A stretch of 64,000 nt of DNA from an uncultured Bacillales bacterium. Its GTDB lineage: Bacteria > Bacillota_I > Bacilli_A > RF39 > UBA660. The translations under genes and the position numbers were made by a program. Of the stretch, positions 16,659-64,000 are shown piece by piece. The notes beneath the pieces are model-generated. The model was not told the origin of the DNA, made no database searches, and saw only the letters and a program-made list of their open reading frames with translations. Numbering within the stretch: position 1 is the first letter of the stretch; every line of letters starts with the position of its first letter. The stretch covers positions 1,025 through 65,024 of the forward strand of contig CAMNHK010000005.1 in NCBI GenBank assembly GCA_946539445.1. Reading direction: 5' to 3'.

Positions 16659-16723
16659 GAATTACGTTTGTAATTTCTTATTAGTGCGGATTAAGTTTTT
16701 TAGTCCCTACTAATAAGAAATTA
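16659..16723 (+). promoter_or_regulatory. Two mutually exclusive RNA hairpins between the WXG100 pair and family A2
   Basis: Hairpin 1: 16659..16666 pairs with 16671..16678 (8 bp, GTTT loop). Hairpin 2: perfect 14-bp stem AATTTCTTATTAGT (16673..16686) with ACTAATAAGAAATT (16710..16723), 23-nt loop. The arms overlap at 16673..16678. Confidence 0.45.
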
Positions 16724-16739
16724 ATAAGGAGGGATTTAA

Positions 16740-17462
16740 ATGGCAGTTGTTGCGGATTCTGGGGTAGCAGGAGGAACTTTATGTACGATGGAGAGTGTTT
16801 TAAACGAAAGTTGCCCTATGGTAGCTGGAGTTTTGTATACTCCTAAAATTGACAAAGGAGCTGTTATTGGTTCTATCAGTACTTTAAAGCAAGATATTGA
16901 TTCAAATCGTTCTTCTGCAGAAGCATTAATATCGGATATTAATGGTGTTTTATCGGCTAGTAATTCTAACCGCTTTTATCGTGGAACTACTGCTACTACT
17001 CAACTTGCTACTTTAGATGATATTACCAATGATATTACTACTTTATTAGGAGTTTTATCCAATATCGATGTTTCTAAAATAGGAAATGCAGTTGATCGAT
17101 ATAATGCCAAACTTGCTAAATTAAAACGAGATACTAGAAAGAAATTAGCTTATGAGGCGGCTCAAGCTATTAATGGAAAAGTTATCAGTTCTGAATATCT
17201 TTCTACTAGTTGTGATTTGTATTGGACTCCTCCTGAACGAATAGAGCATTGCGGTGATAAAATTCATGCTTATCATTATTATAATTATGTTATGACTGAT
17301 AAAAATGATGACTATGCTTTAGCCGATTATAGTTATACAAAAGACTATATTGTTGCTATTCAATATACTAGATTTAGTATACTAGACTTAGAAGCTGCTA
17401 TTACATCTGTCGGTGGTAGTTTGCCTTACAATGTAGGCGCTATCGTTGATTACGAAGAATAA
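16740..17462 (+). CDS. Uncharacterised protein, family A copy 2 (paralog of 14216..14944)
   Basis: RBS AAGGAGGG. Motif sharing as listed for copy 1. Confidence 0.7.
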   Translation: MAVVADSGVAGGTLCTMESVLNESCPMVAGVLYTPKIDKGAVIGSISTLKQDIDSNRSSAEALISDINGVLSASNSNRFYRGTTATTQLATLDDITNDITTLLGVLSNIDVSKIGNAVDRYNAKLAKLKRDTRKKLAYEAAQAINGKVISSEYLSTSCDLYWTPPERIEHCGDKIHAYHYYNYVMTDKNDDYALADYSYTKDYIVAIQYTRFSILDLEAAITSVGGSLPYNVGAIVDYEE

Positions 17463-17504
17463 AGTGATATTATTTTTTAAATAGATAAAAAAGGAGGACT
17501 CCTA

Positions 17505-30863: not shown

Positions 30864-30897
30864 AAATAAAAAAGAATGTAGACTTTCCTACATTCTT
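30864..30897 (-). terminator. Rho-independent terminator after polC
   Basis: Minus strand: AGAATGTAG-6 nt-CTACATTCT (9 bp) followed by a T-run. Confidence 0.75.
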
Positions 30898-33800: not shown

Positions 33801-35525
33801 GGCATCATAATCTCCTCTATGATGAGCATCTTCATCCCATGGTACTTCATACCGTTTTACTAAGGCTGACAAGGAATGTCTAGCATAGGTATTATCTAAT
33901 GTTCTTGATAATTCTAGGGTATCGATTACAGGATTTTGAAACGTTCCTAAATTATATTTTTTATAAGCCATTTCTAGGAAGGAAGTATCAAATTTGGCGT
34001 TATGAGCCACCATTGGGCAATCACCAAACCATTCGATAAAGCGTTTTACGGCATTTTCTTCGTTGTCTTTTCCTTCTAACATAGCATCGGTAATATTGGT
34101 TAATTCTACTATTTTTTCTGGTAATGGTCTTCCTGGATTGATTAATTCATCATATCTTTCTAGGATTTCTCCATTTTTAATTTTTACGGCTCCTATTTCG
34201 ATGATGGAATCCGCTCCACCGGCATTAAAACCAGTCGTTTCAAAGTCAAAAACCACATAGGTTTGATCTAACATAATTTCATCGTTTGGACGAACGACTA
34301 TATTAACCGAATCGTCAATCATGGTTAATTCTGCTCCATAGATGGCTTTAAATGGTTCTTGTCCTTCTTCTAATTTTTTATTATTACTCGTTACCATATT
34401 AAAGACATGTGGAAATCCTTGTACTCCATTGTGATCGGTAATAGCTACGGCTTTCATACCAAACTTCATAGCTGTTTTCACAATATCGGTTTCATCGGCC
34501 ACTCCGTCCATTTGACTCATTTTGGTATGACAATGTAATTCTACTCTTTTTACTTCGGCTGTATCTTTTACAGTTGTTTCTTCTTTTTCAATCGCAATAA
34601 TATCTCTAGCATTTAATACTAATTCTTTGGCAAAGGTATCATTTTTGGTATATCCTCGAATTTTATACCAATTTCCTTCTTTCAATTCTTTGCATAGTCT
34701 TTTGTATTCCTCTTCTTCTCTTACAAAAACTTTGCAATAAATACTATCTGAAAAATCCGTTATTTTTAAGGTAATAATTTTAAAATCGGTTTTACTGGAT
34801 TCAAAGTAATCTACTCCAAATACTTTGGCTTCTACTACGACATTATTATCTTCTCCTAATAATGTCTTTATCTTAATCGGATCTTCTTTAATTCCTCTTC
34901 CTATGATACTGTTTGGATCTTTCGCCTCTCGATGATATTTTTTCTTTTCTCCTGTTGTTGCCTCTTCGGTGGAAGTTTTTTTCTTTTTCTCTACTACTGG
35001 CATTTCATAATTATTTAATTCTTGCTGAATCTCTTCTAGTATATTTTTATCTTGATGTATCTTTACTTCTATATTAAAGGCATATCCTAATTGTTTATAA
35101 AAACGATTTATTTTATCTAGACATTTTTCTATTTTTTCTTTTTCTAATTCATTGGATACAAATAATACTAAAAAGTCATCTTCTATTTGAAGAGAATCTT
35201 CATATAATTCTAATACCTTTAAATCTTCTTTTAATTGTTTTAATAAGTATGGATAATAGGATTGAAATAATTCTAATGGTTTTTCTTCTGGATTCCAATA
35301 AAATTCTATTTTACTGGCATTTTTATCTAGAGCCATTTTTTTCTCTTGTAATTCTTCAAATACTTCTATTGGTGGCAATTTATCTATATCTATCATTACT
35401 TGCCAACTATCTACTTTGGAATTTACTTTAATTTTAGGAATTTTGGCCGCAGAAAAGTATTGATAAGAGTTCTCATCAATACTTATTTTGTCTAACAATA
35501 CTTTTATTTTCTCGTCCATTTTCAT
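30897..35525 (-). CDS. polC: DNA polymerase III alpha subunit, PolC type
   Basis: 1542 aa. PHP domain (VELHCHTKMSQMDG), embedded DEDD exonuclease (YVVFDFETTG...HNAKFDTSFL), Zn-finger CEKC...CPNC, polymerase core. Confidence 0.95.
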   Translation of the reverse strand: MKMDEKIKVLLDKISIDENSYQYFSAAKIPKIKVNSKVDSWQVMIDIDKLPPIEVFEELQEKKMALDKNASKIEFYWNPEEKPLELFQSYYPYLLKQLKEDLKVLELYEDSLQIEDDFLVLFVSNELEKEKIEKCLDKINRFYKQLGYAFNIEVKIHQDKNILEEIQQELNNYEMPVVEKKKKTSTEEATTGEKKKYHREAKDPNSIIGRGIKEDPIKIKTLLGEDNNVVVEAKVFGVDYFESSKTDFKIITLKITDFSDSIYCKVFVREEEEYKRLCKELKEGNWYKIRGYTKNDTFAKELVLNARDIIAIEKEETTVKDTAEVKRVELHCHTKMSQMDGVADETDIVKTAMKFGMKAVAITDHNGVQGFPHVFNMVTSNNKKLEEGQEPFKAIYGAELTMIDDSVNIVVRPNDEIMLDQTYVVFDFETTGFNAGGADSIIEIGAVKIKNGEILERYDELINPGRPLPEKIVELTNITDAMLEGKDNEENAVKRFIEWFGDCPMVAHNAKFDTSFLEMAYKKYNLGTFQNPVIDTLELSRTLDNTYARHSLSALVKRYEVPWDEDAHHRGDYDAEGTALVFHKMLKKLSNRNIEKMSDLDRLVSKEEIHKYGRAHHINILVKNQIGLKHLFQLISLANTTYLYKTPRILRSVVEEYREGLLIGSGCYEGEVFNEAKSKSDDELSNIIRFYDYVEVQPMECYDHLIQTGDFATRVEVAANIEKVVRVTEEAGKIIVATGDVHHIKRDDKIYREIIVNQKVPGGGRHPLARNGIKEIPSNHFRTTNEMLEDFQFLGAEKAYEIVVENTNKIADMCDIVEVIPDTGGIPFSPRVKSDDGESYLDCPVVVTDLVYTKVADWYGDPLPYAIEERIATELYGDIVYRIVTEELQKENLSDEEFQKQSHKKLHDIILQGKDKVVEYVKEYVKRTSEEELDEKGLEKATKKALGGVIGGGFDPIYLIAQRLVKHSNDEGYLVGSRGSVGSSFVATMMGITEVNPLAAHYRCEKCKLSIFEDENGKPYGADYSSGFDLPDKDCPNCHIPMIKDGQDMPFATFLGFNADKVPDIDLNFSDLNQASAHAYTKVLFGENNVYRAGTIGTVADKTAFGFVKGYCEEKGLGDMRTAEVERLAIGCTGVKRTTGQHPGGIVVIPDYKDVSDFTPYQFPAEDATAEWKTTHFDYHSIDQCLLKLDILGHSDPTQLRLIQNQSGTDILKVPLDDKATMSIFTSTEALGVTKEQIMCNTGTLGIPEFGTSFTIKLVEDTKPTTFGELIKISGLSHGTDVWLGNAQELIQNNIVPFKDTIGCRDDIMVYLMYNGVKPLKAFKIMEFVRKGKASKEPEAWQEHVKTMQEANIPEWFINSCAKIKYMFPKAHAAAYVISAFRIAWYKVHMPVYFYASWLSSKATDIDLDSMVKGYNTIKARIEDIQEKGFEASNKENGQSESLKVALEATARGMKFLPVDLYKSDATVWVVKSDTEIYPPFNAIDGLGDTVAKNIVAEREKGNFISIEDVQKRAKVSQTLIDKMKEMGIFEGLPDSNQLTLF

Positions 35526-42852: not shown

Positions 42853-43500
42853 CTATATTAAAACAATCATGATTAATGCTATCAATACTAAGATGGATAA
42901 AACATCCAAAAACCATTCTTTATGGCAAAAGGCTGGTAGTTTTTGACTAATAATTCGTAATAGATTATAGATTCCAAATCCTAAAATGCTTCCAACAATA
43001 TTTAATATTAAATCATCTACGTCAAATACTCTTCCTATCAGCATTTGAACTACTTCAATAGATATGGAAGCAATTACGGTTAATAAAAGTGGCAAATATA
43101 TTTTTTCCACTTTTAAATAATAACTTGTAAAAAATCCAAATGGTAGAAACATAATCATATTTCCTAAAACATTTTTTATAAATAAACGACTGGTAATATG
43201 ATATCTTAATATTTCACGAAATGGGATAAAATTATTACTGGCCCAAGCTGTATCATCTTGAAAGGTTACCACTTGGAATAAACATAGAATATAAACACCA
43301 AATATTAACATCGATAATTCTTTGTAAATTACAATTCTTTCTTTGTTTTTTATTAAATAACAAATTCGGAAAGATATCATAATAACCATTGAAATAACTA
43401 TCATTGGCCAAGTAAAATGAATAACTCCTTGGATGGTGCTAGAAATTGGGTTTTGCATCTCTTCATCCCCTTTCTCATTCTGTTTTTTCTGGAAGGTCAC
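42853..43500 (-). CDS. VanZ family membrane protein
   Basis: 4-5 TM helices. NFIPFREI and GNMIMFLPFGF motifs. Confidence 0.7.
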   Translation of the reverse strand: MTFQKKQNEKGDEEMQNPISSTIQGVIHFTWPMIVISMVIMISFRICYLIKNKERIVIYKELSMLIFGVYILCLFQVVTFQDDTAWASNNFIPFREILRYHITSRLFIKNVLGNMIMFLPFGFFTSYYLKVEKIYLPLLLTVIASISIEVVQMLIGRVFDVDDLILNIVGSILGFGIYNLLRIISQKLPAFCHKEWFLDVLSILVLIALIMIVLI

Positions 43501-44629
43501 TATAGTCTGTTATATCTTCCTTCACACGCAAAAAAACTTCTACTTCTATTTTACTATTTTTTTGTTGTTTTTTCAAAACTTTTTTCTCTAGGATCTGTTC
43601 TTCTTTTGATAGATTTTGTCGCATTTTATCCGCTGCTATTTTACATGCTATGGAATCGACGTTTTTTGTAGAATAGTTTTTTTCAATTGTGCTTGTTTTT
43701 TGATATTTTCCTATAGCTATTCTAAACGGCAGAATAGAACTATCTAATATATTATACACATCTTTTTTATAGGTCGACCATCGACTATTCCAATCAAACT
43801 CTTTCGTTCCTAACTGAAGATTGATTCCATAGGATGTTTTAGAATCTAATTTTTCTTTTGTTATGGTATTGGGAATTAATACTTTTACAAGATACCATGT
43901 TTCTCCATAAATCTGTCCAGTAGCACATTGACTTGCTACTATTTCTTCTTTGTTGTGAATCCAGCCACTGATTAGTATTTCCCCTTTTTCTACATAGTCT
44001 CCCTTTTTTTTCATTACTTCTCCACTTGATGCATGAATTTCTAGTATATTGGCTTTTTTCTTGGCCACCACATTTCGACCTATACATTCTTCCTTTGGTA
44101 TTTCTTTTTTCTTTTCTTCTATCTGAATCATGTATTTACAGCCAACTCTTTCTATTTCTATCCATTCTACTATGTTTTTTTCTTTTTCCAATATGGTCTT
44201 TTTTATGGCGTTTTCTTTTTCTTTGGATGGCTTCCAATTATATTTTTTTATTCCCAGCTCCGCTAAGTCTTTCTGAATGATTTTCTTCATTGATTCTTTT
44301 GGGTGATGAATTTCTATGCCCCAAATGAATTGTGATAGTCCTATATTTATTCCGATTCCTAGTAAGAATAGTCCTACCCAAATTCGATAATTCCAACCTA
44401 GTTGTTTCCATTTTTCCCAACCATAGTGATGAATAATATGCATTTTGTAAATGGTAGGAATGGATTGTAATTTTTTCCAGTCTTTTTTGGATATGCGAAT
44501 CACCATGGAATGTTTTTTTAAATCCAAGAAATATATATTAATATTATGATAGAGTATTTTTTTTAAGAAGTATTTAGGATTATGTCCCTTTATTTCTACG
44601 TCAATTAGACTTTTCATTTTGAACCTCAA
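43475..44629 (-). CDS. yqfD: Sporulation protein YqfD (stage IV)
   Basis: Size, single central TM helix and conserved position after yqfC. Sequence pattern IEIHHP...GIKKYNW... Confidence 0.75.
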   Translation of the reverse strand: MRFKMKSLIDVEIKGHNPKYFLKKILYHNINIYFLDLKKHSMVIRISKKDWKKLQSIPTIYKMHIIHHYGWEKWKQLGWNYRIWVGLFLLGIGINIGLSQFIWGIEIHHPKESMKKIIQKDLAELGIKKYNWKPSKEKENAIKKTILEKEKNIVEWIEIERVGCKYMIQIEEKKKEIPKEECIGRNVVAKKKANILEIHASSGEVMKKKGDYVEKGEILISGWIHNKEEIVASQCATGQIYGETWYLVKVLIPNTITKEKLDSKTSYGINLQLGTKEFDWNSRWSTYKKDVYNILDSSILPFRIAIGKYQKTSTIEKNYSTKNVDSIACKIAADKMRQNLSKEEQILEKKVLKKQQKNSKIEVEVFLRVKEDITDYSDLPEKTE

Positions 44630-46180: not shown

Positions 46181-46601
46181 CTTCCCATATTATTTTAAAA
46201 ATTTTTATTAATTGTATATTATTTTTATGAATGGATATTTCTATCATATCCTGTATTTTATAGTCGGTTGATTTCTTTAAATGAATCCATAATTCTCGAT
46301 ATTCTTGATTCTTTTTTGTGACAATTTTACCTCTATCCTCTTCGATTTCAAAAGGTATTTTTTTGTTCTTTATATATAAATTTTTGTTTTGTTGAAATAA
46401 CTTTGCTTCTTCTTGATTCACAATAATTGCTGCTAAGTCCTTTCTAACTATTACTCCTCCTATTTTTTGAAATGTTTCGATTTTTATTTGAGTTAATAAA
46501 AAAATAGTAACTCCTTGTGATAGGATTAGTATTATAGCTAATAGTTGAATGAGGGATTGTCTTTCATAATTTCTAATTTTCATATACTCTCCCGTTGGCA
46601 A
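46173..46601 (-). CDS. Small single-TM protein, candidate minimal bacteriocin-export accessory factor
   Basis: N-terminal TM helix (LIQLLAIILILSQGVTIFLL) followed by a ~100-aa beta-rich domain. Sits between the C39-ABC exporter and the peptides, where an HlyD/LcnD-type protein usually lies, but is far shorter. Confidence 0.35.
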   Translation of the reverse strand: MPTGEYMKIRNYERQSLIQLLAIILILSQGVTIFLLTQIKIETFQKIGGVIVRKDLAAIIVNQEEAKLFQQNKNLYIKNKKIPFEIEEDRGKIVTKKNQEYRELWIHLKKSTDYKIQDMIEISIHKNNIQLIKIFKIIWEGD

Positions 46602-48645
46602 TTTTTATGGTTCGATCAAATAAAAACTGATTATTAAAGCGATGAGATATCACTATGATGGTCTTATCCGATAAATAGTTAAATATATTCTTTAGTATTT
46701 TCTTTTCCTTTGAAATGTCGATTCCTGTTAGTGCTTCATCTAAAATATAGATGTTACTTTTTTTGATGATACTTCTTGCGAGAATAATTCGTTGTCTTTC
46801 TCCATGACTATAATTAAAACCATTTTCTTCTATTACCATATCATACCCTGTGATTCCTTTTTTTAGTAGTTCATCTACATAACATATTTTACATACTGTT
46901 TGAAACTCTTCCTCTGAATATTCTTTAAATAATTCTATATTGTTTCTTAACGTATCCGTAAATAAATATTCATCACTTGTGACATAGGTAATATTCGAAC
47001 GAATATTTTCTAAATGATAATGATTGATATCAATATTAGAGATGGATATTATCCCATAGTCTACTTCTATGTATCGTAAAAGCATTTTCAATAATGTACT
47101 TTTCCCAATTCCACTACTTCCTGTTAATAAAATTTTACTTCCTTTTTTTATTTCTAAATTGAGGTTACGAAATAATACTTTACTGCCAATAGTATAATTT
47201 AAGTTTTTTATTCGAATATCCCCATCTAATTGATAAGGAAGATAGAAGTAGTTGTTTTGAAAATTATCTTCTTCTATCATAAATAATTCTTCCACTCTGT
47301 CTAGAGAGATTTTATAGGAATTGTATTCTTCTATCACCGCTAGAATATGATTGAAACAAGTTGAAAAGTATGAAAAAAAGGTTTGATATACAATGAGACT
47401 ACTTAATGTTAGTTCTTCTTGAATTACATAGAATGCTCCGATTCCATAAATACATACTAATACCCAATCATTTATATTATTTTTTAGATAATAGTAGATT
47501 TCTTCCCAGGTTGTCCATTGATATACTTTTTCTAAAAAGGAGCGATAGTTTAGAGAAAATTTATCAATCATCCTTTTTTCTAAATGACTGCCTTTCATCG
47601 TATCTACATTACTTATTCCTTGGATGATATAAGAATTAATTGTATCTTCTCCTTTCACTATTTCTTGTTTTTTTTGTTTTTTTCTCTTTTGAAAAACGAT
47701 GGTTAAAATCGTGATGACTCCAAAAAGAATCATTAGAATGATGGTTAATTCTTTTTGAAAACGAAATAAGAATATGAGAAAAATACCGGCATTTAAAATA
47801 TCGGTTGAGACTACACAAAATAGATTACTAATATAAGATCGAACTCTATTCAAATCTTTGAATCTAGAAACAACCTCTCCTGTTGTCCTATTTTTATAAT
47901 ATAAATATGGAAGTAAAAGAATTTGTTTATAAGTAAGAGTGGTTGTTTCATAGTCAAAGATCATAGTCCATTTATATAGTAAAATATTTCTTACGAAAAT
48001 ATTTGAATTTTTTAAAAGATAGAAACTAATCATCATGTAACTAAGAATGATTAAATTATTTTGATTATTATTATCTATTGAATATTCAAGAATGTATTTA
48101 AAATGAAATGAGGTTATTAAATTTATAATAAAATAAGAGAATGTTAATAGAACAATTAACCATAGTAATTTATGATTTGATTGAATTAGTTTTTTACTAT
48201 TCTGATAGATAATATTTTTCTTCTTCATGATGGGAAGTTTCTTGAATGGTTTTAATAATAAGTAGTTGGAACTTGATAATAGATGAAACTCTGAAAAAGA
48301 AATTGTTTTTTTCCCTTTTGATGGATCCATAATCGTTACTTTCTTTTTTCTTTTGTGTATTTCATAAATAACGACAAAATGATGAATATTTTTATGAATT
48401 ACAATATGAGCAATACAGGGTAAGTTATTTACTTCTATGTTTTCTAGTGATCCTGTAACGCCTATCGAATCCAAACCTATTCTTTTTGCTCCTTCCATTA
48501 AATTATAGAAGGAGGTACCTTCTTTTGTAGTATGGGTTATTTCTCTTAAAAATTCTTTCGATACTTCTCCTCCATAAAATCGAATAATTGATAAAAGACA
48601 ACAAATACCACAATCTTTTATTCCATCCTGTAGGACAATTTTCAC
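46573..48645 (-). CDS. Bacteriocin-processing ABC transporter with N-terminal C39 peptidase domain
   Basis: C39 motifs (QDGIKDCGICCL, HHFVVIYEI), 6-TM domain, Walker A GSSGIGKST, signature SHGERQR, Walker B IYILDEAL. GTG start with RBS AGGAGGTG. Confidence 0.85.
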   Translation of the reverse strand: MKIVLQDGIKDCGICCLLSIIRFYGGEVSKEFLREITHTTKEGTSFYNLMEGAKRIGLDSIGVTGSLENIEVNNLPCIAHIVIHKNIHHFVVIYEIHKRKKKVTIMDPSKGKKTISFSEFHLLSSSNYLLLKPFKKLPIMKKKNIIYQNSKKLIQSNHKLLWLIVLLTFSYFIINLITSFHFKYILEYSIDNNNQNNLIILSYMMISFYLLKNSNIFVRNILLYKWTMIFDYETTTLTYKQILLLPYLYYKNRTTGEVVSRFKDLNRVRSYISNLFCVVSTDILNAGIFLIFLFRFQKELTIILMILFGVITILTIVFQKRKKQKKQEIVKGEDTINSYIIQGISNVDTMKGSHLEKRMIDKFSLNYRSFLEKVYQWTTWEEIYYYLKNNINDWVLVCIYGIGAFYVIQEELTLSSLIVYQTFFSYFSTCFNHILAVIEEYNSYKISLDRVEELFMIEEDNFQNNYFYLPYQLDGDIRIKNLNYTIGSKVLFRNLNLEIKKGSKILLTGSSGIGKSTLLKMLLRYIEVDYGIISISNIDINHYHLENIRSNITYVTSDEYLFTDTLRNNIELFKEYSEEEFQTVCKICYVDELLKKGITGYDMVIEENGFNYSHGERQRIILARSIIKKSNIYILDEALTGIDISKEKKILKNIFNYLSDKTIIVISHRFNNQFLFDRTIKIANGRVYEN

Positions 48646-53659: not shown

Positions 53660-55912
53660 TTACTTTTTATTGGTTTCTTTGTATGTTACAAATCCTATGA
53701 TAGCAAGTCCTCCAATTAATAGATATAACCAGAATGGAATTGTTTCCCATAAATCTCGTAATTGGATTAAGATATTTAATATAGTAATAATAATTCCTGT
53801 CACAAAGAAGGATTTCAATTCCTTTAAATGGTATCCTAATAAAATGACAATAATTCCTACAATTCCAATATAGATTCCTATTGTTACATTTGTTTCAAAC
53901 ATTACTTCTATTATGGCAACTATTACTCCAATTAAACCTACTATATTCTTACTATCCGAAGTTTTACATAGGAATTTAACGATTATGAATGTCAAATATA
54001 GTAGTAAAATACTGATCATAATCATTTTATAAGTTATGTTGAAGTCAAAATAATTTATGATACCTAATAATGGAATTATGATAGCAAAATAATTTGTCTT
54101 TTTTACTATTTCATTATTCCATAATAATATTGTGGATACTAATATTCCAAGGAAAATAAGATCTATTGCTACATCTGAAATTACTAAAATATTAATGTTT
54201 TTCAACAAATTGTAAATACTAATTAATAAAATGATATAAGAAATGGTAAACCATGCTTTTTTTGTATTATTGTTTTGATATTCTTGATAACTAGTTAATG
54301 TTGAAACAGTTGTAGGTACTAATACTAATAATGCTGGTAAAACTTCTTTGTCTATATTAATTTGAATGCTGGCAATTGTTCCTATTAAGGCTGCCATTAA
54401 ATATAATTTTTTGATATTGTTTTCTTTATAGAAATAATAGCAAACAATATAAACAATAGTGGCTATTGCAAAAATCATGGAAAAACTTATTTCCCAATTT
54501 AATTCCTTTATTTTGAAGAAGGCAGCTAGAGAAATTAGAATGGCTACTGGTTCTATATAGCTAGCATATTTTACAACATGAGATTTTTCTATTCTTTGAG
54601 ATGCTAATATATTCATGAATAAAAATCCTAAAGAAATAATGAAACCTACTATAGAATCTTCTGCTGTACTTACGACAAAAATTATTAGAGAAGCAATACT
54701 AAATAATCCATAATTAATATTGTTCAATAATTTAAAGTGTTCTTTTGTATTAATTTTTATTAATAATGTATAGACACATAATACGCAGAACAATAGAATA
54801 CTTGCATAAGAACTCGTACTGAAATTATAAACAGAAAAGAATAATAATATATAAGTAATGCCAATCATAAAGATGGATTCTAGTGTATCGTCTGATCGAT
54901 ACATTAAGTATACTAAAGTTGCTATATTAAGGATGGAAGCAAGTAGAATCCATACTTCATTATAGCCATTGATACTTCGAATGATGAAAACAAACATAAT
55001 CATAGATAATAATTTCGAAGTTTGAAATAAGGTGGAATCTTTTTTTGAAAAGATAGTAACTCCTAGTAAAATACTAGATAAAATAATCATTACAATGGAT
55101 TCATCGATTGGAAAATAAGCTAAAAAATTATAGATTACTAAAAAGGCACTTCCATAAAATCCAAATAACAAATACTCTTTTGATAGTTTTAAATAACTTG
55201 CATAACATAATCCAGCAACCGTGAAGCAAGTAATGGCATAAGCTAATTTTGAACTTACTCCATCATAAGATAAGGAACCTAAGACTCCAAAATATAATAA
55301 AGCTATAATCGAAAATAAATAAAATGACATACTTACTATCCAGTACATATAAGAACTACGATATAGTTTTAATTTTATTTCTGTAAATAAAGATAAACAT
55401 AGGAATAAACTACCAAATACTAATAAGAAAATAGCTTTGGCGGCATCAGAAACAAATGACCAAGATGTGGTAGCAAATAGAATTCCTGATATTAAAACCA
55501 TTCCTACTCCGAGTTTTAATAGAATATCAATTCTACGCATTTCCGGATTCACGACTTTTTTCACTCTTACTGGCGGTCCATTAATCGGATTGATACTATC
55601 TTCTCCATTCGATAAATTAGAATAAGCTAAAAAGACAAAAATACTGGCAATAAAGTTTATAAATATTTGAGAAAATGCCAAAAGGAAGACTCCTACGTTA
55701 TAATTATGTAGTTCTTCTTCGGACATATTACTTAGATGCCATAATACTATTGCACTAACGATTCCTATCAAACTGTAATAGTTAAAAAAAAGGATAGAGG
55801 AACTAATTAAATTTAGTATTGCTGCTATCCTAAAAAATCTTTGATACTTTTTCATATCAGTCACCTCTATTATTCTATTATCATTATAAAGGAATCTATA
55901 TTTTTTGTCCAT
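53660..55912 (-). CDS. Large polytopic membrane protein (~20 TM helices), unknown function
   Basis: 750 aa, almost entirely hydrophobic helices. Its start overlaps the rel stop by 17 nt. Confidence 0.5.
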   Translation of the reverse strand: MDKKYRFLYNDNRIIEVTDMKKYQRFFRIAAILNLISSSILFFNYYSLIGIVSAIVLWHLSNMSEEELHNYNVGVFLLAFSQIFINFIASIFVFLAYSNLSNGEDSINPINGPPVRVKKVVNPEMRRIDILLKLGVGMVLISGILFATTSWSFVSDAAKAIFLLVFGSLFLCLSLFTEIKLKLYRSSYMYWIVSMSFYLFSIIALLYFGVLGSLSYDGVSSKLAYAITCFTVAGLCYASYLKLSKEYLLFGFYGSAFLVIYNFLAYFPIDESIVMIILSSILLGVTIFSKKDSTLFQTSKLLSMIMFVFIIRSINGYNEVWILLASILNIATLVYLMYRSDDTLESIFMIGITYILLFFSVYNFSTSSYASILLFCVLCVYTLLIKINTKEHFKLLNNINYGLFSIASLIIFVVSTAEDSIVGFIISLGFLFMNILASQRIEKSHVVKYASYIEPVAILISLAAFFKIKELNWEISFSMIFAIATIVYIVCYYFYKENNIKKLYLMAALIGTIASIQINIDKEVLPALLVLVPTTVSTLTSYQEYQNNNTKKAWFTISYIILLISIYNLLKNINILVISDVAIDLIFLGILVSTILLWNNEIVKKTNYFAIIIPLLGIINYFDFNITYKMIMISILLLYLTFIIVKFLCKTSDSKNIVGLIGVIVAIIEVMFETNVTIGIYIGIVGIIVILLGYHLKELKSFFVTGIIITILNILIQLRDLWETIPFWLYLLIGGLAIIGFVTYKETNKK

Positions 55913-57518: not shown

Positions 57519-57550
57519 GCAAAAAACTCTAGTTTTTCCACTAGAGTTTT
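57519..57550 (-). terminator. Rho-independent terminator after valS
   Basis: AACTCTAGT-6 nt-ACTAGAGTT hairpin flanked by A/T runs. Overlaps the valS stop. Confidence 0.75.
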
Positions 57551-60077
57551 ATTTTGTTAATTCTTCTAACTTTTTCTTTTCTTCCACTAATTTTTGACGG
57601 TCCATTTCTACGATGTTTGCAGGAGCTTTCTTGACATAGTTTTCATTAGATAATAATCCCTCTCTACGTTTAATGGAAGCTTCTAATAATTTGATTTGAG
57701 CTTCTTTGGCTGCTTTTTCTGCTTCTGATTCTATTTTTTCAAAGAAGATAGTAGCTTTGATACGATTAGAGAATACTTTGTATGCTTTTTTTCCTAATGG
57801 TTCTTTGACAATGCTTTCATCTAGTTTCAACATTTTAACGATTAATTCATTATCATCTTCTGTATCAAACATTACTTTTAATTCTTTGGTCATATTGTTT
57901 TCTGCTTTTATATTACGGAAGTTTTTGATAAATTCAACGGCATCATCTACTGCATATTCTTCTTTTTCAAATACATATTTTTTATTATATTTTGGATATT
58001 CGGAAATCATGATAGACTCTGCATCTTTTACTGGTAACTTTGAATAAATCTCTTCTGTTACAAATGGCATAAATGGATGTAACATTTTTAATATTCCGGT
58101 AAGTACAAAACATAATGTTGATTTCGTTGCCATAGAGTCTAGTGAATATTTTGCCATTTCAATGTAATAATCACAGAAATAATTCCAAGCAAAATTGTAA
58201 ATCTCAGACCCTGCTAAATTAAATTCATATTTATCCATATGTTTGGTTACGGATTTAACTACATGTTCATATTTGGATATAATCCATTTATCTTCTGGTT
58301 TTAAATACTCTAATTTAATATCTTTGATATCTTCCATATTCATTAAGGCAAATCGGGAAGCATTCCAAATTTTGTTGATGAAATTCCAAGTTGCAGTTAA
58401 TTTTACTTCATCAAAACGTAAATCCATTCCCATAGAACCATCCGTTGTTAGATAGTAACGAAGAGAGTCTGCTCCATACTTATCTACCATATCAAATGGA
58501 TCTACTCCATTTCCTAATGATTTTGACATTTTTCTTCCTTGTTTATCACGAATTAATCCATGGATTACACAATCTTTAAATGGACGTGCTCCTAAAGTAT
58601 ATTCGGTTTGGAATGCCATTCTCGCAACCCAGAAGAAGATAATATCATATCCTGTTACGAGACAGTCGGTTGGAAAATAGCGTTCGAAGTCTTTCGTTTT
58701 TTCTGGCCAACCTAGTGTTGAGAATGGCCATAGAGCACTACTAAACCAAGTATCTAGTACATCCTCATCTTGCGTCCAGCCTTCTCCTTCTGGGGCTTCC
58801 ATTCCAACATAGGTTTCATCTCCTCTATACCAAGCTGGAATTCTATGTCCCCACCATAATTGACGTGATATGCACCAGTCATAAGAAATATCCATCCAGT
58901 GTCTCAATACTTTTTCAAAACGTTTTGGAACAAAGTTAATTTTCTTTTCTTTATCATCTTGAAATTCTAAAACCGTTCTTGCAAGTGGCTCCATTCTAAC
59001 AAACCATTGTTTTTTAATCATTGGTTCTACCATAACTCCCGTTCTCTCACTATGTCCAACTTCATGAACTAATGGTTCTATTTCAAGTAATAGTCCTTGT
59101 TCTTTTAAATCTTCTATTACTTTTTCACGGCATTCTTCTCTTGTTAATCCGGTATATCCTGGAGCATTTTCATTCATTGTTGCATCGTCATTCATAATAA
59201 CGATTCTTTCTAGATTATGACGATTTCCAACTTCAAAGTCGTTAGGGTCATGAGCTGGTGTAATTTTAACAACACCGGTTCCTTTTTCCATATCCGCATG
59301 TTCATCGGTTATGACAGGAATAGGCTTATTTACTAATGGTAAAATAACATTTTTCCCAACAAATTTTTTGTAACGTTCATCTGCTTCATTTACAGCTACT
59401 GCTGTATCACCAAAAAGTGTTTCTGGACGTGTCGTTGCTACATCTAGGAAATCTTCAGAGTCTTCTAATTTATATTTTATATGATAGAAGGCACTCTTTT
59501 CTGATTTATAGATAACTTCTTCATTGGATAGTGCTGTTTGAGCGGCTGGATCCCAGTTAATAATTTTTTCTCCACGATAAATTAATCCTTTGTTATAGTA
59601 ATCAACAAATATTTTTCTTACCGCTTTGTTTAAGTCTTCATCCAAAGTAAATCTTTCTCTTGTATAATCTACTGATAATCCAAGTGCTGCCCATTGAGAA
59701 CGAATACTATCTCCATATTCATGAGTCCAATCCCAGCAAGCCTCTAAGAATTTATCTCTACCATACTCATATTTGTCAATTCCTTGATCTTTTAGTTTTT
59801 TAACAACTTTTGCTTCTGTAGCAATGGCAGCATGATCCATTCCTGGTAACCATAAGGTATCAAATCCTTGCATTCTTTTGTATCGAACGATAGCATCTTG
59901 AATGGCTGTATCATAAGCATGCCCAATGTGTAGTTTTCCGGTAACATTTGGAGGTGGAATTACGATACAAAAAGGAGTTTTATCGGATGTATTATCGGCC
60001 TTAAAATATCCTTTTTCTTTCCATATATTATATTTTCCTTGTTCTGTTTCTTTATGATTATATTTTTTTTCTAACAT
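57549..60077 (-). CDS. valS: Valine--tRNA ligase
   Basis: HIGH motif (PPPNVTGKLHIGHA), KMSKS, editing domain, C-terminal coiled coil. Confidence 0.95.
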   Translation of the reverse strand: MLEKKYNHKETEQGKYNIWKEKGYFKADNTSDKTPFCIVIPPPNVTGKLHIGHAYDTAIQDAIVRYKRMQGFDTLWLPGMDHAAIATEAKVVKKLKDQGIDKYEYGRDKFLEACWDWTHEYGDSIRSQWAALGLSVDYTRERFTLDEDLNKAVRKIFVDYYNKGLIYRGEKIINWDPAAQTALSNEEVIYKSEKSAFYHIKYKLEDSEDFLDVATTRPETLFGDTAVAVNEADERYKKFVGKNVILPLVNKPIPVITDEHADMEKGTGVVKITPAHDPNDFEVGNRHNLERIVIMNDDATMNENAPGYTGLTREECREKVIEDLKEQGLLLEIEPLVHEVGHSERTGVMVEPMIKKQWFVRMEPLARTVLEFQDDKEKKINFVPKRFEKVLRHWMDISYDWCISRQLWWGHRIPAWYRGDETYVGMEAPEGEGWTQDEDVLDTWFSSALWPFSTLGWPEKTKDFERYFPTDCLVTGYDIIFFWVARMAFQTEYTLGARPFKDCVIHGLIRDKQGRKMSKSLGNGVDPFDMVDKYGADSLRYYLTTDGSMGMDLRFDEVKLTATWNFINKIWNASRFALMNMEDIKDIKLEYLKPEDKWIISKYEHVVKSVTKHMDKYEFNLAGSEIYNFAWNYFCDYYIEMAKYSLDSMATKSTLCFVLTGILKMLHPFMPFVTEEIYSKLPVKDAESIMISEYPKYNKKYVFEKEEYAVDDAVEFIKNFRNIKAENNMTKELKVMFDTEDDNELIVKMLKLDESIVKEPLGKKAYKVFSNRIKATIFFEKIESEAEKAAKEAQIKLLEASIKRREGLLSNENYVKKAPANIVEMDRQKLVEEKKKLEELTK

Positions 60078-60862
60078 TTTACTTTCTCCTCTATATAGTT
60101 TTCAATTGTTTTACGAATTTCTTCTAGTTGTTTTTGCATTTTCTCATTTTGATTTCTTTCTTTATATATGTCAATCACTCGATTAAAGTAATCTTTTTCT
60201 TTTAAAATTCGAAAACTTTCTGGATAGTTAATATCAAAGGCAAATCCTAAAGCAACGGATAAGATATCTCCTTTGGTTTTTAAGTTTTCCTTTAATATTT
60301 CTTTTTTGTGAATCAAATTCTCATATACTTGATCACTAAATGGTTCGTTTTTTAAATCTAGTTTAATGTCATCGGTTGTATATAAGTATAAAATATCAAT
60401 TTTATCGGCATCACGAACAATATTACAAAATACTTTTTCCTTTTCGGTTAAGCCTTCTTTGATTTTAAATTTATTATGATAACGAATACTATTCATTACG
60501 ATATCATAAATCGATTCTTCTGTGAAATACTTCTTATAATAATCCTTTGTATTTAATATTTGAATTCCTAATTCTGCATGATCTTCACTTTTAGAATCTT
60601 CAAATGTTTGATACTTTTTCCACTGCTCAAAACGACCAATATCATGCAATAGTCCACATAATTCTGCTACTTCTATTTCTTTTTTTGATAAAGATAAAGA
60701 TTTAGCAATTTGTTTGCATAAGGCCTCGACTCGAAATGTATGATTGATTTTTAAGACACATCTTTCGCCTACTTTTCGATAAGGATCGGTATATTGTAAA
60801 AATTCTTGTTTTGCATTTTCTAAATTCATCTGATTCACCTCTACATAAAAAAAGTAATTCAT
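60071..60862 (-). CDS. HD-domain phosphohydrolase, function unknown
   Basis: H...HD...D pattern (NHTFRV, LLHDIGRFEQ, VRDADKIDIL). Overlaps the valS start by 7 nt. Confidence 0.65.
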   Translation of the reverse strand: MNYFFYVEVNQMNLENAKQEFLQYTDPYRKVGERCVLKINHTFRVEALCKQIAKSLSLSKKEIEVAELCGLLHDIGRFEQWKKYQTFEDSKSEDHAELGIQILNTKDYYKKYFTEESIYDIVMNSIRYHNKFKIKEGLTEKEKVFCNIVRDADKIDILYLYTTDDIKLDLKNEPFSDQVYENLIHKKEILKENLKTKGDILSVALGFAFDINYPESFRILKEKDYFNRVIDIYKERNQNEKMQKQLEEIRKTIENYIEEKVKC

Positions 60863-61070
60863 CCAAAAGGACGAATTACTCGTGGTACCACCTTAGTTTC
60901 TATCAAATTGATAGCTTATTTGGATAACGGGATTTTCCCGGAATTTCTTAAAGTTATTTTCAGAAATTATGCTCCTCTGCTACCTTCTTTATTCTTTTTT
61001 ATTCATTTTCACCAACCATGAACTCTCTTAAAAAAAAGATATAAATACTCCTCAGATTCCTCGCATCTGT
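60848..61070 (-). promoter_or_regulatory. T-box riboswitch leader, probable Val (GUA) specifier
   Basis: Minus strand: stem I with GA/K-turn elements and AGAGA...GGTGAAA. Specifier loop GAAG-GUA-G (GUA at 60983..60981). T-box sequence AAGGTGGTACCACG (about 60880..60895). Terminator AGTAATTC-12 nt-GAATTACT plus T7 (60848..60880). Confidence 0.8.
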
Positions 61071-61075
61071 ATGTA

Positions 61076-61104
61076 ATTATATCTTATTGTTCCTTATTTT
61101 TCAA
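61076..61104 (-). promoter_or_regulatory. Near-consensus sigma-A promoter driving the T-box leader
   Basis: Minus strand: TTGAAA (61104..61099), 17 nt, TATAAT (61081..61076). The -35 element lies within the 3' end of the DUF4176 gene. Confidence 0.65.
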
Positions 61105-61375
61105 TACTTTTATGATTTCTTATTTTTAAATTTTCTAAAAATTCTCTTTCTTCATAATTCATAAATCCTTGAAAGATTACTTCTTTTATTTCAGAATGAT
61201 TAAAAACACAAATGGTATCGGAGCGAATGGTTCCTTCTGGATACATACATCCGCAGTAATCAAATATGTGGTCTGGATACTCTGGTGTACTGACGGAATA
61301 TCCTGTAATCATTAATTTCTTTTTTCCACTATTTAATATTACAATACTACCTAATGGTAAATAATTATTTGTCAT
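61094..61375 (-). CDS. DUF4176 family protein (T7SS-locus-associated small protein)
   Basis: MTNNYLPLGSIVILNSGKKKLMITGY...FDYCGCMYPEGTIRSD...FNHSEIKEVIFQGF matches the DUF4176 pattern as I recall it. The ATG at 61375, with RBS GAGGAGGAA, overlaps the upstream gene's end. Confidence 0.7.
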   Translation of the reverse strand: MTNNYLPLGSIVILNSGKKKLMITGYSVSTPEYPDHIFDYCGCMYPEGTIRSDTICVFNHSEIKEVIFQGFMNYEEREFLENLKIRNHKSIEK

Positions 61376-62534
61376 CGTCTGATTCCTCCTCGAATAAATA
61401 AGATTCTCCATAGAATTTATTTAGAACTTCTCGATCTCTCTCGGCTTGATAAGGAACTGGATCATAATCGTCTAACATAAACTCTGTATTGTTGTGATGC
61501 TCTATTGGTTGATAGTTATCTTCCTCATTCGATATAGGTTCCTTATAATCTTCTAATTTGAAATTCTTTTTGGATTTTTGCTCGCTAGCTACTACAGCAG
61601 CAATGGATCCAGCAATGCCGGCGGCTCCAATCCCAATTCCAATCGGAACGGTATTTATGTCATTAGACGTTTCCGTTGGAGTCTCTGGGGTTGGGATAAC
61701 AGTCGTTTGTGTTTCATTATTTCCATAATTATTTAATTCTCTTAAAACTTTATTTCCTATTTCTCCCAATCTCTTTTTTGTTTCTTCTACTTTTATAAAT
61801 GATTCGGTTGCGGATTCTTCATATTGATTTTGGATGGTTGCTAGTCTAGTAGCCTCTTCTCTTGTGACTCCATATTTTGTTTGATATTCTTCCCGAATTA
61901 GATTTATATTGTTTTGCTCTTTGGCAAAATTCGAAGAAGCTAAACTGGTTACAGAAGCCCCTGTTCTTTCTTGTCTCCAAATAGCCATATCTTGATTTAC
62001 TTTGTTCATTTTTTCCAATTCATCTAGTTGTGGATATTTTTTTTCTAATTCTTCTGCCCATTCCTCTAATGAATGATAATTATCTGGGTAATCGGTTAAA
62101 TTATTATTGATCATATAGTTTTGAATGGTATCATCTATATTTTCTCGATAAGTATCTACACTTTGAGATATTTGAATTTCCCCACTAGGTAAGACTACTT
62201 CTTTCTTAGGAGAATATAGTTTCATAATACTTTTCAAATCTTCTTTTCCTAGAGAATCCGTACTATAATCCCGTATTGTTTTTGTAAGAGATTCTTCCAA
62301 TTCTAATACTTTTCTTTCTACTGAGTCCAACAAACTAAATATAGAATCCATAGAGTCTTTATAATCATTTAAACAGTTGTTGTGTTCAAAGTTGATATCT
62401 TTTATTACGCTTTCTATCTCTAAAAAGATTCCTGATAGGTCTCTTGTTTCTAAGCATCCTTCGATAGAGGATAAGGTTTCGATGGAGGTGGTTAAGCGAT
62501 CTACATCGATACAACAAGTATATCCATTAGCCAT
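61365..62534 (-). CDS. Uncharacterised protein: helical N-domain, Gly-zipper TM helix (61584..61649), acidic C-tail
   Basis: 389 aa. VPIGIGIGAAGIAGSIAAVVA followed by a 70-aa D/E/Y-rich tail. Same end architecture as family B proteins and the partial ORF at 63485..64000. Confidence 0.65.
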   Translation of the reverse strand: MANGYTCCIDVDRLTTSIETLSSIEGCLETRDLSGIFLEIESVIKDINFEHNNCLNDYKDSMDSIFSLLDSVERKVLELEESLTKTIRDYSTDSLGKEDLKSIMKLYSPKKEVVLPSGEIQISQSVDTYRENIDDTIQNYMINNNLTDYPDNYHSLEEWAEELEKKYPQLDELEKMNKVNQDMAIWRQERTGASVTSLASSNFAKEQNNINLIREEYQTKYGVTREEATRLATIQNQYEESATESFIKVEETKKRLGEIGNKVLRELNNYGNNETQTTVIPTPETPTETSNDINTVPIGIGIGAAGIAGSIAAVVASEQKSKKNFKLEDYKEPISNEEDNYQPIEHHNNTEFMLDDYDPVPYQAERDREVLNKFYGESYLFEEESDDDK

Positions 62535-62545
62535 ATTATCCCCTC

Positions 62546-63058
62546 CTATATTGAACGAATCGCATCTAAGCGTTCTTTTAACTTATTAATGCGATTATTG
62601 GTATCATCAATAATATCATCCAAACGTAATTGTTGAACATTTTTTATATTTCCATTTTGATTCATTTTATCTCGTAGTAATAAGGTATTATTTAAAATTT
62701 TTTCTTCTTCTAATATTTTGGAACCTAAGGCTTCCATCAACTGTTCTTTCTCTATTTGTTTTTGAATGGTGGAATCCTTTATTATTTTTTTCTTTAATGA
62801 ATCATATTCTCTTTGAATTGCTTCAATTTCTTCTAATATTTCTTTTGCTTTCTCATGCGCAGGAGATGTTCCCATAATATTTAAAGAAAGAGTATCTAGT
62901 CCTCCATAAAACATTTCTTGTTTGATTCCTTCGGCTATTACGGAATTCATATAGGTATGATACGTTTGAAATTGATCTTCTATTTTTTCCACTACTTTCG
63001 TTGGATTTATAAGATCATTTCCTTCTGTTTTCCATGTTATCCAATCTACTTTCGGCAT
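62546..63058 (-). CDS. Helical (coiled-coil) protein, unknown function, first gene of a three-gene unit
   Basis: 170 aa from the ATG at 63058 (RBS TAGGAG). Heptad-rich C-terminal half. Confidence 0.5.
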   Translation of the reverse strand: MPKVDWITWKTEGNDLINPTKVVEKIEDQFQTYHTYMNSVIAEGIKQEMFYGGLDTLSLNIMGTSPAHEKAKEILEEIEAIQREYDSLKKKIIKDSTIQKQIEKEQLMEALGSKILEEEKILNNTLLLRDKMNQNGNIKNVQQLRLDDIIDDTNNRINKLKERLDAIRSI

Positions 63059-63087
63059 ATTTACCAACTCCTACTATTCTATAGTAT

Positions 63088-63116
63088 ATTATATCTTTTT
63101 TTTTTAGAGAAAGCAA
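63088..63116 (-). promoter_or_regulatory. Sigma-A promoter inside the DUF4176 locus
   Basis: Minus strand: TTGCTT (63116..63111), 17 nt, TATAAT (63093..63088). Confidence 0.6.
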
Positions 63117-63120
63117 ACGA

Positions 63121-63150
63121 TAAAAAAAGAAGGTTATTTCTAACCTTCTT
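63121..63150 (-). terminator. Terminator after the upstream DUF4176 gene
   Basis: Minus strand: AGAAGGTTA-GAAA-TAACCTTCT (9 bp) followed by T7. Overlaps the stop codon. Confidence 0.7.
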
Positions 63151-63466
63151 GTTGTTGTCTTAATTCAGCTAATCCACCATTTAATACTTTAGAAATCTCT
63201 TTTTGATTATCGGTTTCATAACCCTTAAAGCAAACTTTATCAATTCTATCGTGATTAAAAGCAAATACTTGATCACTTGTAATCATACCTTCTGGATAGA
63301 AGCAAGCTCCATAGTCAAATATTTGACCATCGATTTCAACTTTTCCGTTTTTGTCATAAACTTCTCCCGTTGGCATAATGCAATAACTTGTAATCATTAA
63401 TTCTCTTTTACCACCTTTTAATAATACTACTGTACCGATAGGTAAAAATTTGTCATCCATTTCCAT
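63140..63466 (-). CDS. DUF4176 family protein, second copy
   Basis: FLPIGTVVLLKGGKRELMITSY...FDYGACFYPEGMITSDQVFAFNHDRIDKVCFKGY. RBS AAGGGAGGAA. Confidence 0.7.
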   Translation of the reverse strand: MEMDDKFLPIGTVVLLKGGKRELMITSYCIMPTGEVYDKNGKVEIDGQIFDYGACFYPEGMITSDQVFAFNHDRIDKVCFKGYETDNQKEISKVLNGGLAELRQQQEG

Positions 63467-63484
63467 TCTAATTCCTCCCTTTTA

Positions 63485-64000
63485 TTATAAATCGGTTAAT
63501 TCGTCGTTGCCTCTAGCAACGTAACCATCATTTTCAATTGCTTGATAACTGAAATCGTCTTCATCTTCTAAATAGTTTTCTTTATCAGCTTCTGATGTAT
63601 CTTCATAAGAGAATTCCATATCGTTTTCTTCGTCTCCGTCCCACTCTTCTGTGTAGATATCATCATCTCCACCATTATCACTATTCTTCTTACGATCTAT
63701 GTATGCTTTAGCTCCTATTCCGGCAGCTGCTGCAGCACTTAATCCGGCTGCAATTGGAATTACTGCGCTACCTCCACTTCTACTTGTTGGAGAAAGTGGG
63801 GTTGAAGATGTAGGAACTTTTGAATATTTATTTCCTTTAATAATATCATCAATTGATGTGGTTGAACCATCCACTAAATCTGCTAAATCAACATCATCAT
63901 ATGGTGAACTTGGTGTATATCCTTCACCACTATATCCGCCACCACCATGGTTGTTATTAGTTGGTGATTCTGGATTAACTCCTGGATTAAATGGTGTTGT
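63485..64000 (-). CDS. C-terminal part of a larger protein (continues past window end): Gly/Ala-zipper TM helix (63701..63766) plus acidic tail
   Basis: The frame stays open from 64000 (…TTPFNPGVNPESPTNNNHGGGGYSGEGYTPSSPYDDVDLADLVDG…). The track 'M' at 63874 is an internal GTG. VIPIAAGLSAAAAAGIGAKAYI is followed by a D/E-rich tail. Confidence 0.6.
   Translation of the reverse strand, partial: TTPFNPGVNPESPTNNNHGGGGYSGEGYTPSSPYDDVDLADLVDGSTTSIDDIIKGNKYSKVPTSSTPLSPTSRSGGSAVIPIAAGLSAAAAAGIGAKAYIDRKKNSDNGGDDDIYTEEWDGDEENDMEFSYEDTSEADKENYLEDEDDFSYQAIENDGYVARGNDELTDL

Follow-up and report, generated by a model that had tools for sequence, protein, structure and literature searches.

A probable type VIIb secretion substrate locus with two small DUF4176 genes in uncultured gut Bacilli

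Introduction

Proteins of the DUF4176 family are already known as chaperones of the bacterial type VIIb secretion system (T7SSb), each specific for a toxin, as shown experimentally (PMC12478183; review PMC13492133). Here we describe a locus with two small DUF4176 genes, D1 and D2, at one end of a 64,000-nucleotide (nt) stretch of DNA (hereafter the window; G+C content 31%) from an uncultured Bacillales bacterium (assembly GCA_946539445.1, contig CAMNHK010000005.1). The locus is probably the distal part of a T7SSb substrate operon made of two modules, each with a partner, a substrate and a DUF4176 chaperone, in which partner and substrate would form a bundle, the chaperone would hold an internal segment of the substrate and the exported protein would enter a membrane.

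For the large DUF4176 forms, LtcA and LtcB, the binding site is a disordered stretch in the middle of their clients, TelA and TelB (PMC12478183). In the model for these Ltc proteins, the chaperone-bound middle region sits between the targeting and C-terminal domains of the client, and TelC, which has no such region, has no chaperone (PMC12478183; PMC13492133). Small DUF4176 proteins, of 70–130 amino acids (aa), consist of the C-lobe only (PMC12478183). One of them, MQE10_09270 of Streptococcus intermedius GC1825 (PDB 9DCS), is needed for the stability and export of the LXG toxin TelD (PMC12478183). Small DUF4176 genes occur among the immunity genes of membrane-depolarising toxins, and Gkragkopoulou et al. 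speculate that the small forms bind the membrane-inserting helices of these toxins (PMC12478183). DUF4176 is also needed for TelE and LXG1-CT3 (review PMC13492133). TelE of S. gallolyticus has a glycine zipper at residues 458–480 of 514 that is essential for toxicity.

Gene content of the locus

Reading the minus strand from 64000 to 61094, the locus consists of the C-terminus of a gene that we call B3, D1, a terminator-like hairpin, CC170, B4 and D2. Every gene named in a preliminary description of this DNA, made from the sequence without database searches, was found there as described. The features are as follows:

63485..64000, minus strand: C-terminal 171 aa of B3, an open frame that enters from beyond 64000 and has its stop at 63485
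63140..63466, minus strand: D1, a small DUF4176 protein of 108 aa, 18 nt 3' of B3 and with its own AGGGAGG ribosome-binding site
63127..63150, minus strand: intrinsic-terminator-like hairpin (10-bp stem, GAAA loop, T-run) that spans the D1 stop codon
63088..63116, minus strand: possible internal promoter, TTGCTT-17-TATAAT, from a reading of the sequence alone
62546..63058, minus strand: CC170, a predicted all-helical partner of 170 aa, with its ATG at 63058, directly 5' of B4
61365..62534, minus strand: B4, a putative secretion substrate of 389 aa
61094..61375, minus strand: D2, a small DUF4176 protein of 93 aa, with a GAGGAGG site ahead of its ATG

Both small proteins had been taken for DUF4176 members, and both match the Pfam model (PF13780) far above its gathering cutoff of 25 bits (D1, 84 bits, E 7.6e-24; D2, 86.8 bits, E 1e-24). 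In sequence comparison they also match the small DUF4176 protein 9DCS (phmmer E 1.6e-7 for D1 and 9.3e-13 for D2), and the match of D2 to the large forms is weak (E 0.75–0.87). At 108 and 93 aa, both fall inside the small size class. The role of effector-specific chaperone, which the preliminary description offered as a proposal for DUF4176, is by now experimentally established, including for the small member 9DCS (PMC12478183).

The ATG of D2 lies 11 nt inside the 3' end of B4, and the overlap recurs in relatives (for example, 11221 versus 11224 in locus L002). This overlap indicates that translation of D2 would be coupled to that of B4, in agreement with the coupling proposed from the window alone. 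The terminator that had been placed after D1 is likewise present, as a hairpin with a 10-bp stem and T-run at 63150..63127, in a region with 5 terminator-like sites against 1.4 expected. The proposed internal promoter stands in part: the sequence TTGCTT-17-TATAAT is there, at 63116..63088, with a perfect -10 hexamer, but its -35 element agrees with TTGACA at 3 of 6 positions, a consensus promoter scan did not report it, and the region shows no excess of promoter-like sites over shuffled sequence (16 versus 14.7).

Directly 3' of D2 stands a full-length T-box leader (60864..61070, minus strand; Rfam, 141.9 bits), which heads an HD-domain gene (60071..60862, minus strand) whose end overlaps valS (57549..60077, minus strand). 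Thus, the locus ends at D2. A near-consensus promoter-like sequence, TTGAAA-17-TATAAT (61104..61076, minus strand), overlaps the 3' end of D2 ahead of the T-box leader.

An internal segment of B4 goes with the chaperone gene

B4 has four recognizable parts, with a variable middle between the N-terminal domain and the hydrophobic helix:

aa 1 to about 110: N-terminal domain, helical and conserved
aa about 138–220 (61875..62123, minus strand): segment NIDD..LTDYP..W..MAIWRQERTGASVTSLA, putatively chaperone-dependent
aa 297–317 (61584..61646, minus strand): hydrophobic helix PIGIGIGAAGIAGSIAAVVAS, 21 residues with small-xxx-small spacing
aa 318–389 (61368..61583, minus strand): 72-aa tail, with a K-rich flank (EQKSKKNFK) and then an acidic stretch

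We compared these parts across 26 related loci, 20 from genomes and 6 on metagenome contigs, one of these from a bioreactor metagenome. The comparison amounts to a natural deletion series. Eleven loci, with 8 distinct sequences, encode long forms of B4 (351–432 aa) that keep the segment (about 141–219), and in all 11 a DUF4176 gene follows B4, overlapping or adjoining its end. The remaining 15 encode short forms (213–307 aa) from which the segment is absent, and none of them (0 of 15) has a DUF4176 gene after B4. Scored by pattern match, the helix motif occurs in 14 of these 15 short-form loci and the tail motif in 12. Both motifs therefore persist in most loci that have no DUF4176 gene, and neither goes with the chaperone.

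Single loci follow the same division. L012, with a CC170 that shares 69% identity with the copy in the window (the top value for the aligned loci), is among the closest relatives. In its B4, residues of about 141–219 are precisely deleted and those of about 220–275, the helix and the tail remain, and no DUF4176 gene accompanies it. L005 has lost about 229–275 and has retained both 141–219 and the DUF4176 gene. On a neighbour-joining tree of ValS, built without support values, the segment-plus-chaperone state appears three times, at separate positions among lineages that lack it, so the association would not stem from a single inherited event. Because the presence of DUF4176 tracks B4 residues 141–219 and not the helix, we infer that D2 serves the segment at about 138–220 and not the Gly/Ala-rich helix. 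This deletion pattern agrees with the middle-region model of the Ltc chaperones and would argue against helix shielding for the D2–B4 pair.

Conservation and genomic context of the locus

To describe the distribution of the locus, we looked at the relatives and their neighbourhoods. The 20 genome loci with a B4 relative all come from uncultured, metagenome-assembled genomes labelled Bacilli, Bacillales, Erysipelotrichaceae, Mollicutes or unclassified ('uncultured bacterium', 'bacterium'). Where a source name was legible, it indicated human gut (Hadza, UMGS), rumen, sheep duodenum or rabbit. CC170 is directly 5' of B4 in 26 of 26 loci. On contigs of sufficient length, B3-type and DUF4176 genes lie upstream of this pair; the exceptions are L022 and L025, which have the pair by itself. 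With the order of CC170 and B4 constant in all loci and B3 and DUF4176 upstream in most of those that reach far enough, the gene arrangement is not due to chance. In the relatives, valS lies downstream of the CC170–B4 locus, which occupies a single fixed chromosomal position across the lineage, and we found no conserved downstream gene in these relatives that could act as an immunity gene.

Two relatives, L002 and L009, contain the whole operon. It opens with two genes the size of WXG100 proteins (96 and 91 aa), one of which weakly matches TIGR03930 (E 0.0025), and continues with a 168-aa partner, B3 (822–848 aa), DUF4176, a coiled-coil protein in the position of CC170 (143 aa), B4 (407–415 aa) and a second DUF4176. 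Upstream of this operon are CotZ-like genes, ftsW and housekeeping genes. The CotZ-like genes are two cysteine-rich genes on the opposite strand, just 5' of the operon (4328..5122 in L002; 4462..5204 in L009), one of which matches Pfam Spore-coat_CotZ and the other faintly so. Together with YqfD in the window (43475..44629), they suggest that the lineage probably sporulates. We take the host to belong to an uncultured, low-GC, spore-forming lineage of gut Bacilli.

Other arrangements occur in the same lineage. At 3747..7448 of L022, three tandem DUF4176 genes (109, 111 and 138 aa) directly precede a gene for an 856-aa protein without a family match; they adjoin a partial EssC-like open reading frame (ORF) and a YukD-sized gene, a different arrangement of DUF4176 and client. 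Short-form B4 genes are followed in L025 by a 2300-aa ORF without a signal peptide (10728..17630), and directly followed in L014 by a 336-aa gene product whose N-terminus looks hydrophobic (10865..11875) and in L020 by one of 406 aa (2180..3400). The genes in L014 and L020 are the only immunity-like candidates that we saw in the family.

A T7SSb is present in the lineage. L025 encodes a 1524-aa EssC that scores as a TIGR03928 equivalog (927 bits versus a cutoff of 778), ends 4.3 kb from the CC170–B4 pair and is followed by a 92-aa, YukD-sized gene. The partial EssC-like ORF of L022 and one of 1487 aa in L023 are also near the locus, so that EssC or an EssC-like ORF is found within 4–10 kb in three relatives (L022, L023 and L025). 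A T7SS core in this lineage, which the preliminary description had raised as a possibility, is thereby borne out by a true EssC. Two large ORFs of the window considered as EssC proved to be PolC (1542 aa; 30897..35525) and SMC (990 aa), and other large ORFs of the window encode IF-2 and similar proteins.

B4 and its upstream partner

The B4 family is tiny and confined to uncultured gut and rumen Bacilli: at 90% identity it formed 39 clusters in a set of 5.8 billion proteins, and at 50% identity it had 110 representatives in one of 1.84 billion. In an AlphaFold2 (AF2) model with an overall predicted local distance difference test (pLDDT) score of 60.8, the N-terminal domain is the better predicted part, with helices at 11–30, 34–50 and 58–90 (pLDDT 80–89) and an invariant motif, N-F-x-H-x-x-C (conserved in the form NFEHxNC), at the turn of the hairpin. 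The predicted helix-turn-helix is similar in size to a WXG100 protein, with no significant Foldseek match. The segment at 138–220 contains two confidently predicted helices (156–166 and 172–191) flanked by low-confidence stretches. Along the hydrophobic helix, small residues form a ladder (G301-A305-G309-A313-S317) that is glycine/alanine-zipper-like, mixing Gly, Ala and Ser and not made of glycine only; I298, G299, I302, A304 and G306 are invariant (alignment A1). Five lysines or arginines fall in the 15 residues after the helix and none in the 15 before it. The 72-aa tail has a net charge of -13 and a conserved motif, P-Y-x-A-x-R-x(6)-K-F-Y.

Searches for known relatives of B4 gave little. 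It matched no Pfam or NCBIfam model, a profile search of PDB sequences returned nothing below E 0.6, a Foldseek search of the PDB with the AF2 model returned nothing below E 2, and no N-terminal Sec signal peptide was found. LXG was not matched by any of 10 B4-family members from the representative search, and neither the N-terminal hairpin of B4 nor CC170 matched the WXG100 models (PF06013 and TIGR03930).

CC170 is predicted to be all-helical in a single-sequence AF2 model (helices 19–50, 66–134 and 140–169) and has an invariant N-terminal motif, KVDWITWKT (alignment A4). We found no relative of it in Pfam, NCBIfam or PDB sequences, no match to the Pfam Lap families across 18 members and no conserved FxxxD motif. 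A link of CC170 to known folds was also sought with Foldseek, which gave generic helical hairpins and nothing significant.

B3 and its C-terminal module

The visible part of B3 comprises, in order, a linker rich in PT and G, the motif 'KVPTS..P', the helix VIPIAAGLSAAAAAGIGA and a flank rich in K and R (DRKK). The last 74 aa form an acidic tail, with a net charge of -22, that ends in ..Y-V-A-R-G-N-D-E-L-T-D-L. Small residues of the helix form two ladders, A223-S227-A231-G235 and G225-A229-G233, and lysine or arginine occurs 4 times in the 15 residues after the helix and once in the 15 before it. The resemblance to B4 extends to sequence, as hhalign aligned the C-terminal modules of the two proteins over 48 columns (74.6%, E 2.7e-5), which suggests that these modules are probably homologous. 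Homology of B4 to the N-terminus of B3 was considered and rejected (hhalign 0.6%).

Full-length B3 homologues in relatives range from 476 to 1395 aa; the length differs between and within genomes, and paralogues are present. Across species and paralogues the C-terminal module is nearly invariant, up to a terminal ..ELADLQ, and the homologues carry long PT- or PS-rich linkers. PT-rich linkers are typical of extracellular segments. A homologue search with the B3 C-terminus returned 8 contig-end fragments and nothing else. B3 showed no N-terminal Sec signal peptide and no match in Pfam or NCBIfam. The preliminary description saw no recognizable LXG domain in the proteins next to DUF4176, and the searches agree: Pfam detected none in B4 or the B3 fragment, and a lenient scan (to E 5) detected none in 13 B3-family N-termini.

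Homologues of D1 adjoin B3-type genes in relatives, on either the 3' or the 5' side. In several relatives a single DUF4176 gene accompanies two B3 paralogues, or DUF4176 is upstream instead of downstream of B3; L015, L016 and L026 depart from one-to-one pairing. This precluded a clean assignment of D1 to one region of B3.

A second locus and other genes in the window

A second locus of helical proteins, at 14195..19076 on the plus strand, encodes X1 (249 aa), B1 (297 aa), two weakly WXG100-like proteins, X2 (240 aa) and B2 (523 aa). The WXG100-like genes (15964..16290 and 16338..16649) match TIGR03930 with E 9.5e-4 and 1.4e-5, both below the cutoff. X1 and X2 are paralogues, as are B1 and B2; a search of 5.8 billion proteins gave 6 clusters for the B1 family. 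No DUF4176 gene is present at this locus. B1 and B2 end in a Gly/Ala-rich stretch of about 15 residues, with charged residues on both sides, and acidic residues. Homology of B1/B2 to B3/B4 was rejected (hhalign 5.7% for the full lengths, 7% and 26% for the C-termini). The claim that proteins of both loci share one family of C-terminal endings therefore did not hold up: architecture and composition are alike, with homology undetectable. By these comparisons the two loci have a common theme, not a common family.

Elsewhere in the window, the gene at 46573..48645 (minus strand) encodes an ABC transporter that begins with a C39 peptidase domain (E 1.9e-29) and is of the type that exports double-glycine bacteriocins. 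A 750-aa protein without a Pfam match is encoded at 53660..55912 (minus strand). Genes of similar size follow relA in relatives, too (732 aa in L012 and 729 aa in L021; cut by the end of the locus in L014 and L016), and the N-termini of these copies look membrane-embedded.

A model for the locus and its alternatives

The model that we favour builds on direct observations (gene content, DUF4176 membership, synteny, co-occurrence and EssC in a relative), and all of its mechanistic steps are inferred. Also in its favour are the similarity of D1 and D2 to 9DCS, the WXG100-sized genes that open the operon in L002 and L009, the confidently predicted N-terminal helix-turn-helix of B4, and the extracellular type of linker in B3 despite the lack of a Sec signal peptide in both substrates. 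Both modules would share one design, with genes for a small helical partner, a substrate and a small DUF4176 protein, the partner of B3 lying beyond the window edge. The N-terminal helical domain of each substrate would pair with its partner (CC170 in the case of B4) to give an elongated helical bundle recognized by EssC-type machines; this bundle may work like an LXG–Lap or WXG100 pair without detectable membership of either. A DUF4176 dimer would stabilize the bound substrate in the producer cytoplasm until export and then stay behind, and the chaperone-dependent element of B4 would be the internal stretch at about 138–220, not the Gly/Ala-rich C-terminal helix. After export, the C-terminal module (proline-rich stretch, 21-residue helix, basic flank and acidic tail) may insert into the membrane of the producer or of a target cell.

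Several observations weigh against this model. No EssC or other core T7SS gene was detected in the 64-kb window by tblastn with the EssC proteins of relatives, and L002 and L009, the relatives with full upstream context, have no EssC within 10 kb upstream of the operon. The preliminary description had suggested that essC may lie just beyond position 64000; in these two relatives, that prediction does not hold. Hidden Markov model searches, PDB-sequence profiles and Foldseek linked none of B3, B4 and CC170 to the LXG, WXG100 or Lap families, so the proposed targeting-domain role rests on context and predicted helicity. To these come the loose pairing of D1 with B3, the ValS tree without support values and the fact that three independent assemblies (L001, 1..934; L027, 3..1103; and the contig carrying P0003) all end inside B3. 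L001, a metagenome scaffold identical to the window, lengthens B3 by 418 nt, to 310 aa, before its contig ends; L027 and the P0003 contig are the two nearest relatives, and the breaks fall in or near the PT/G-rich repeats of B3. The window probably ends at 64000 because these repeats, and the C-terminal module common to paralogues, break assembly. A locus unrelated to type VII secretion, with B3 and B4 as ordinary membrane proteins (tail-anchored or other) and DUF4176 as a general holdase, would account for a window without a core gene, for the nearest 10 kb upstream in L002 and L009 and for the lack of matches to T7SS families. We nevertheless consider this very improbable: every experimentally studied DUF4176 acts in T7SSb export, EssC lies 4–10 kb from the locus in L022, L023 and L025, and WXG100-sized pairs head the operon in relatives, with a second WXG100-like pair at 16 kb in the window.

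What B3 and B4 would do after export can be read in more than one way. They could be secreted, membrane-permeabilizing antibacterial toxins of the TelE/EsxX/TspA type, whose zipper helix forms pores in target cells and is shielded by DUF4176 in the producer. The Gly/Ala ladder in a hydrophobic helix near the C-terminus, as in TelE and EsxX, would suit such a role, as would the length range and paralogues of B3 and the occurrence of small DUF4176 genes among immunity genes of membrane-depolarizing toxins, for which helix binding was proposed (PMC12478183). We think toxins of this kind unlikely, as the chaperone does not track the helix (in 15 loci the helix, its motif matched in 14, is present and B4 is not followed by DUF4176), neither D1 (followed by the terminator) nor D2 (followed by the valS T-box leader) has an immunity-like gene downstream and most relatives are alike in this, the C-terminal module is the most conserved part where polymorphic toxins vary, and the locus keeps one fixed position beside valS across the lineage. 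It is possible, if on the whole not expected, that B3 and B4 are instead T7SSb-exported surface proteins held in the membrane of the producer by the C-terminal helix, N-terminus outside and acidic tail cytoplasmic, with a role linked to the envelope, adhesion or sporulation. The positive-inside rule fits this topology in both proteins (lysine and arginine after versus before the helix, 5 versus 0 in B4 and 4 versus 1 in B3), and so do the PT-rich linkers N-terminal of the B3 helix, the absence of both a signal peptide and an immunity gene, the near invariance of the helix and of the terminal motifs (ELADLQ in B3, PYxAxR..KFY in B4) and the fixed position beside ftsW, CotZ-like genes and valS. 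However, the topology comes from a rule of thumb alone, the B3 helix is short (about 18–20 residues) and alanine-rich, the data are compatible with toxicity, and we know of no T7SSb substrate that is released sideways into the producer membrane. Rather doubtful in our view is a proposal that T7SSb itself places B3 and B4 in the membrane of its own cell, by Sec-less export with the N-terminus first and a stop at the Gly/Ala helix, the motif of the cytoplasmic tail docking EssC and DUF4176 being needed only with the extra segment; if true, B3 and B4 would not be toxins but a novel class of surface proteins, dependent on type VII secretion and anchored at the C-terminus. A T7SSb substrate operon with two chaperone modules is the reading that we regard as probable.

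Comparison with known systems

D1 and D2 resemble MQE10_09270 in Pfam family, size class (108 and 93 aa versus 104 aa) and position downstream of the client. They differ in that the putative clients here are not LXG proteins, no immunity gene, DUF443-type or other, separates client from chaperone, and D2 is translationally coupled to its client. The Ltc system offers a second parallel, as LtcA and LtcB with TelA and TelB (S. intermedius B196) and the proposed action of D2 both concern a middle segment between N-terminal targeting and C-terminal domains, and in each case a client without the segment has no chaperone (TelC there, short-form B4 here). The Ltc proteins, however, are 200–250 aa long, with an extra N-lobe, and their gene lies between the lap genes and the toxin gene, whereas D1 and D2 are C-lobe-only and lie downstream.

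The putative substrates recall TelE, EsxX of S. aureus ST398 and LXG1-CT3 of S. suis in that the N-terminus is helical and a hydrophobic helix rich in glycine lies close to the other end. Those toxins have a Pfam LXG domain, two upstream Lap genes and downstream immunity genes, none of which was found here, and the helix of B3 and B4 is instead followed by a basic flank and a conserved acidic tail of 72–74 aa. As in LXG–Lap complexes (Lap1/Lap2, DUF3130/DUF3958; Lap3/Lap4, DUF5082/DUF5344), a small helical protein is encoded just 5' of the substrate and always co-occurs with it; unlike in those complexes, each substrate has a single partner gene instead of two, without similarity to Lap families in sequence models or structure. 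The locus thus departs from LXG polymorphic toxins, with no LXG domain, no variable C-terminus with an immunity gene and a single upstream partner in place of two Laps.

New here are two unannotated, non-LXG families of putative clients, a coupled chaperone gene downstream of its client without an immunity gene, and a C-terminal module of helix, basic flank and acidic tail, which may be an undescribed secretion or anchoring signal. DUF4176 has so far been tied to LXG toxins, and two families without detectable relation to LXG would widen its range of clients. Also new is comparative evidence in which a small DUF4176 appears to follow an internal segment and not a membrane helix. What the small DUF4176 proteins bind was not settled by a structural study of 2025, and the natural deletions in B4 point to a segment of about 80 residues, away from the helix.

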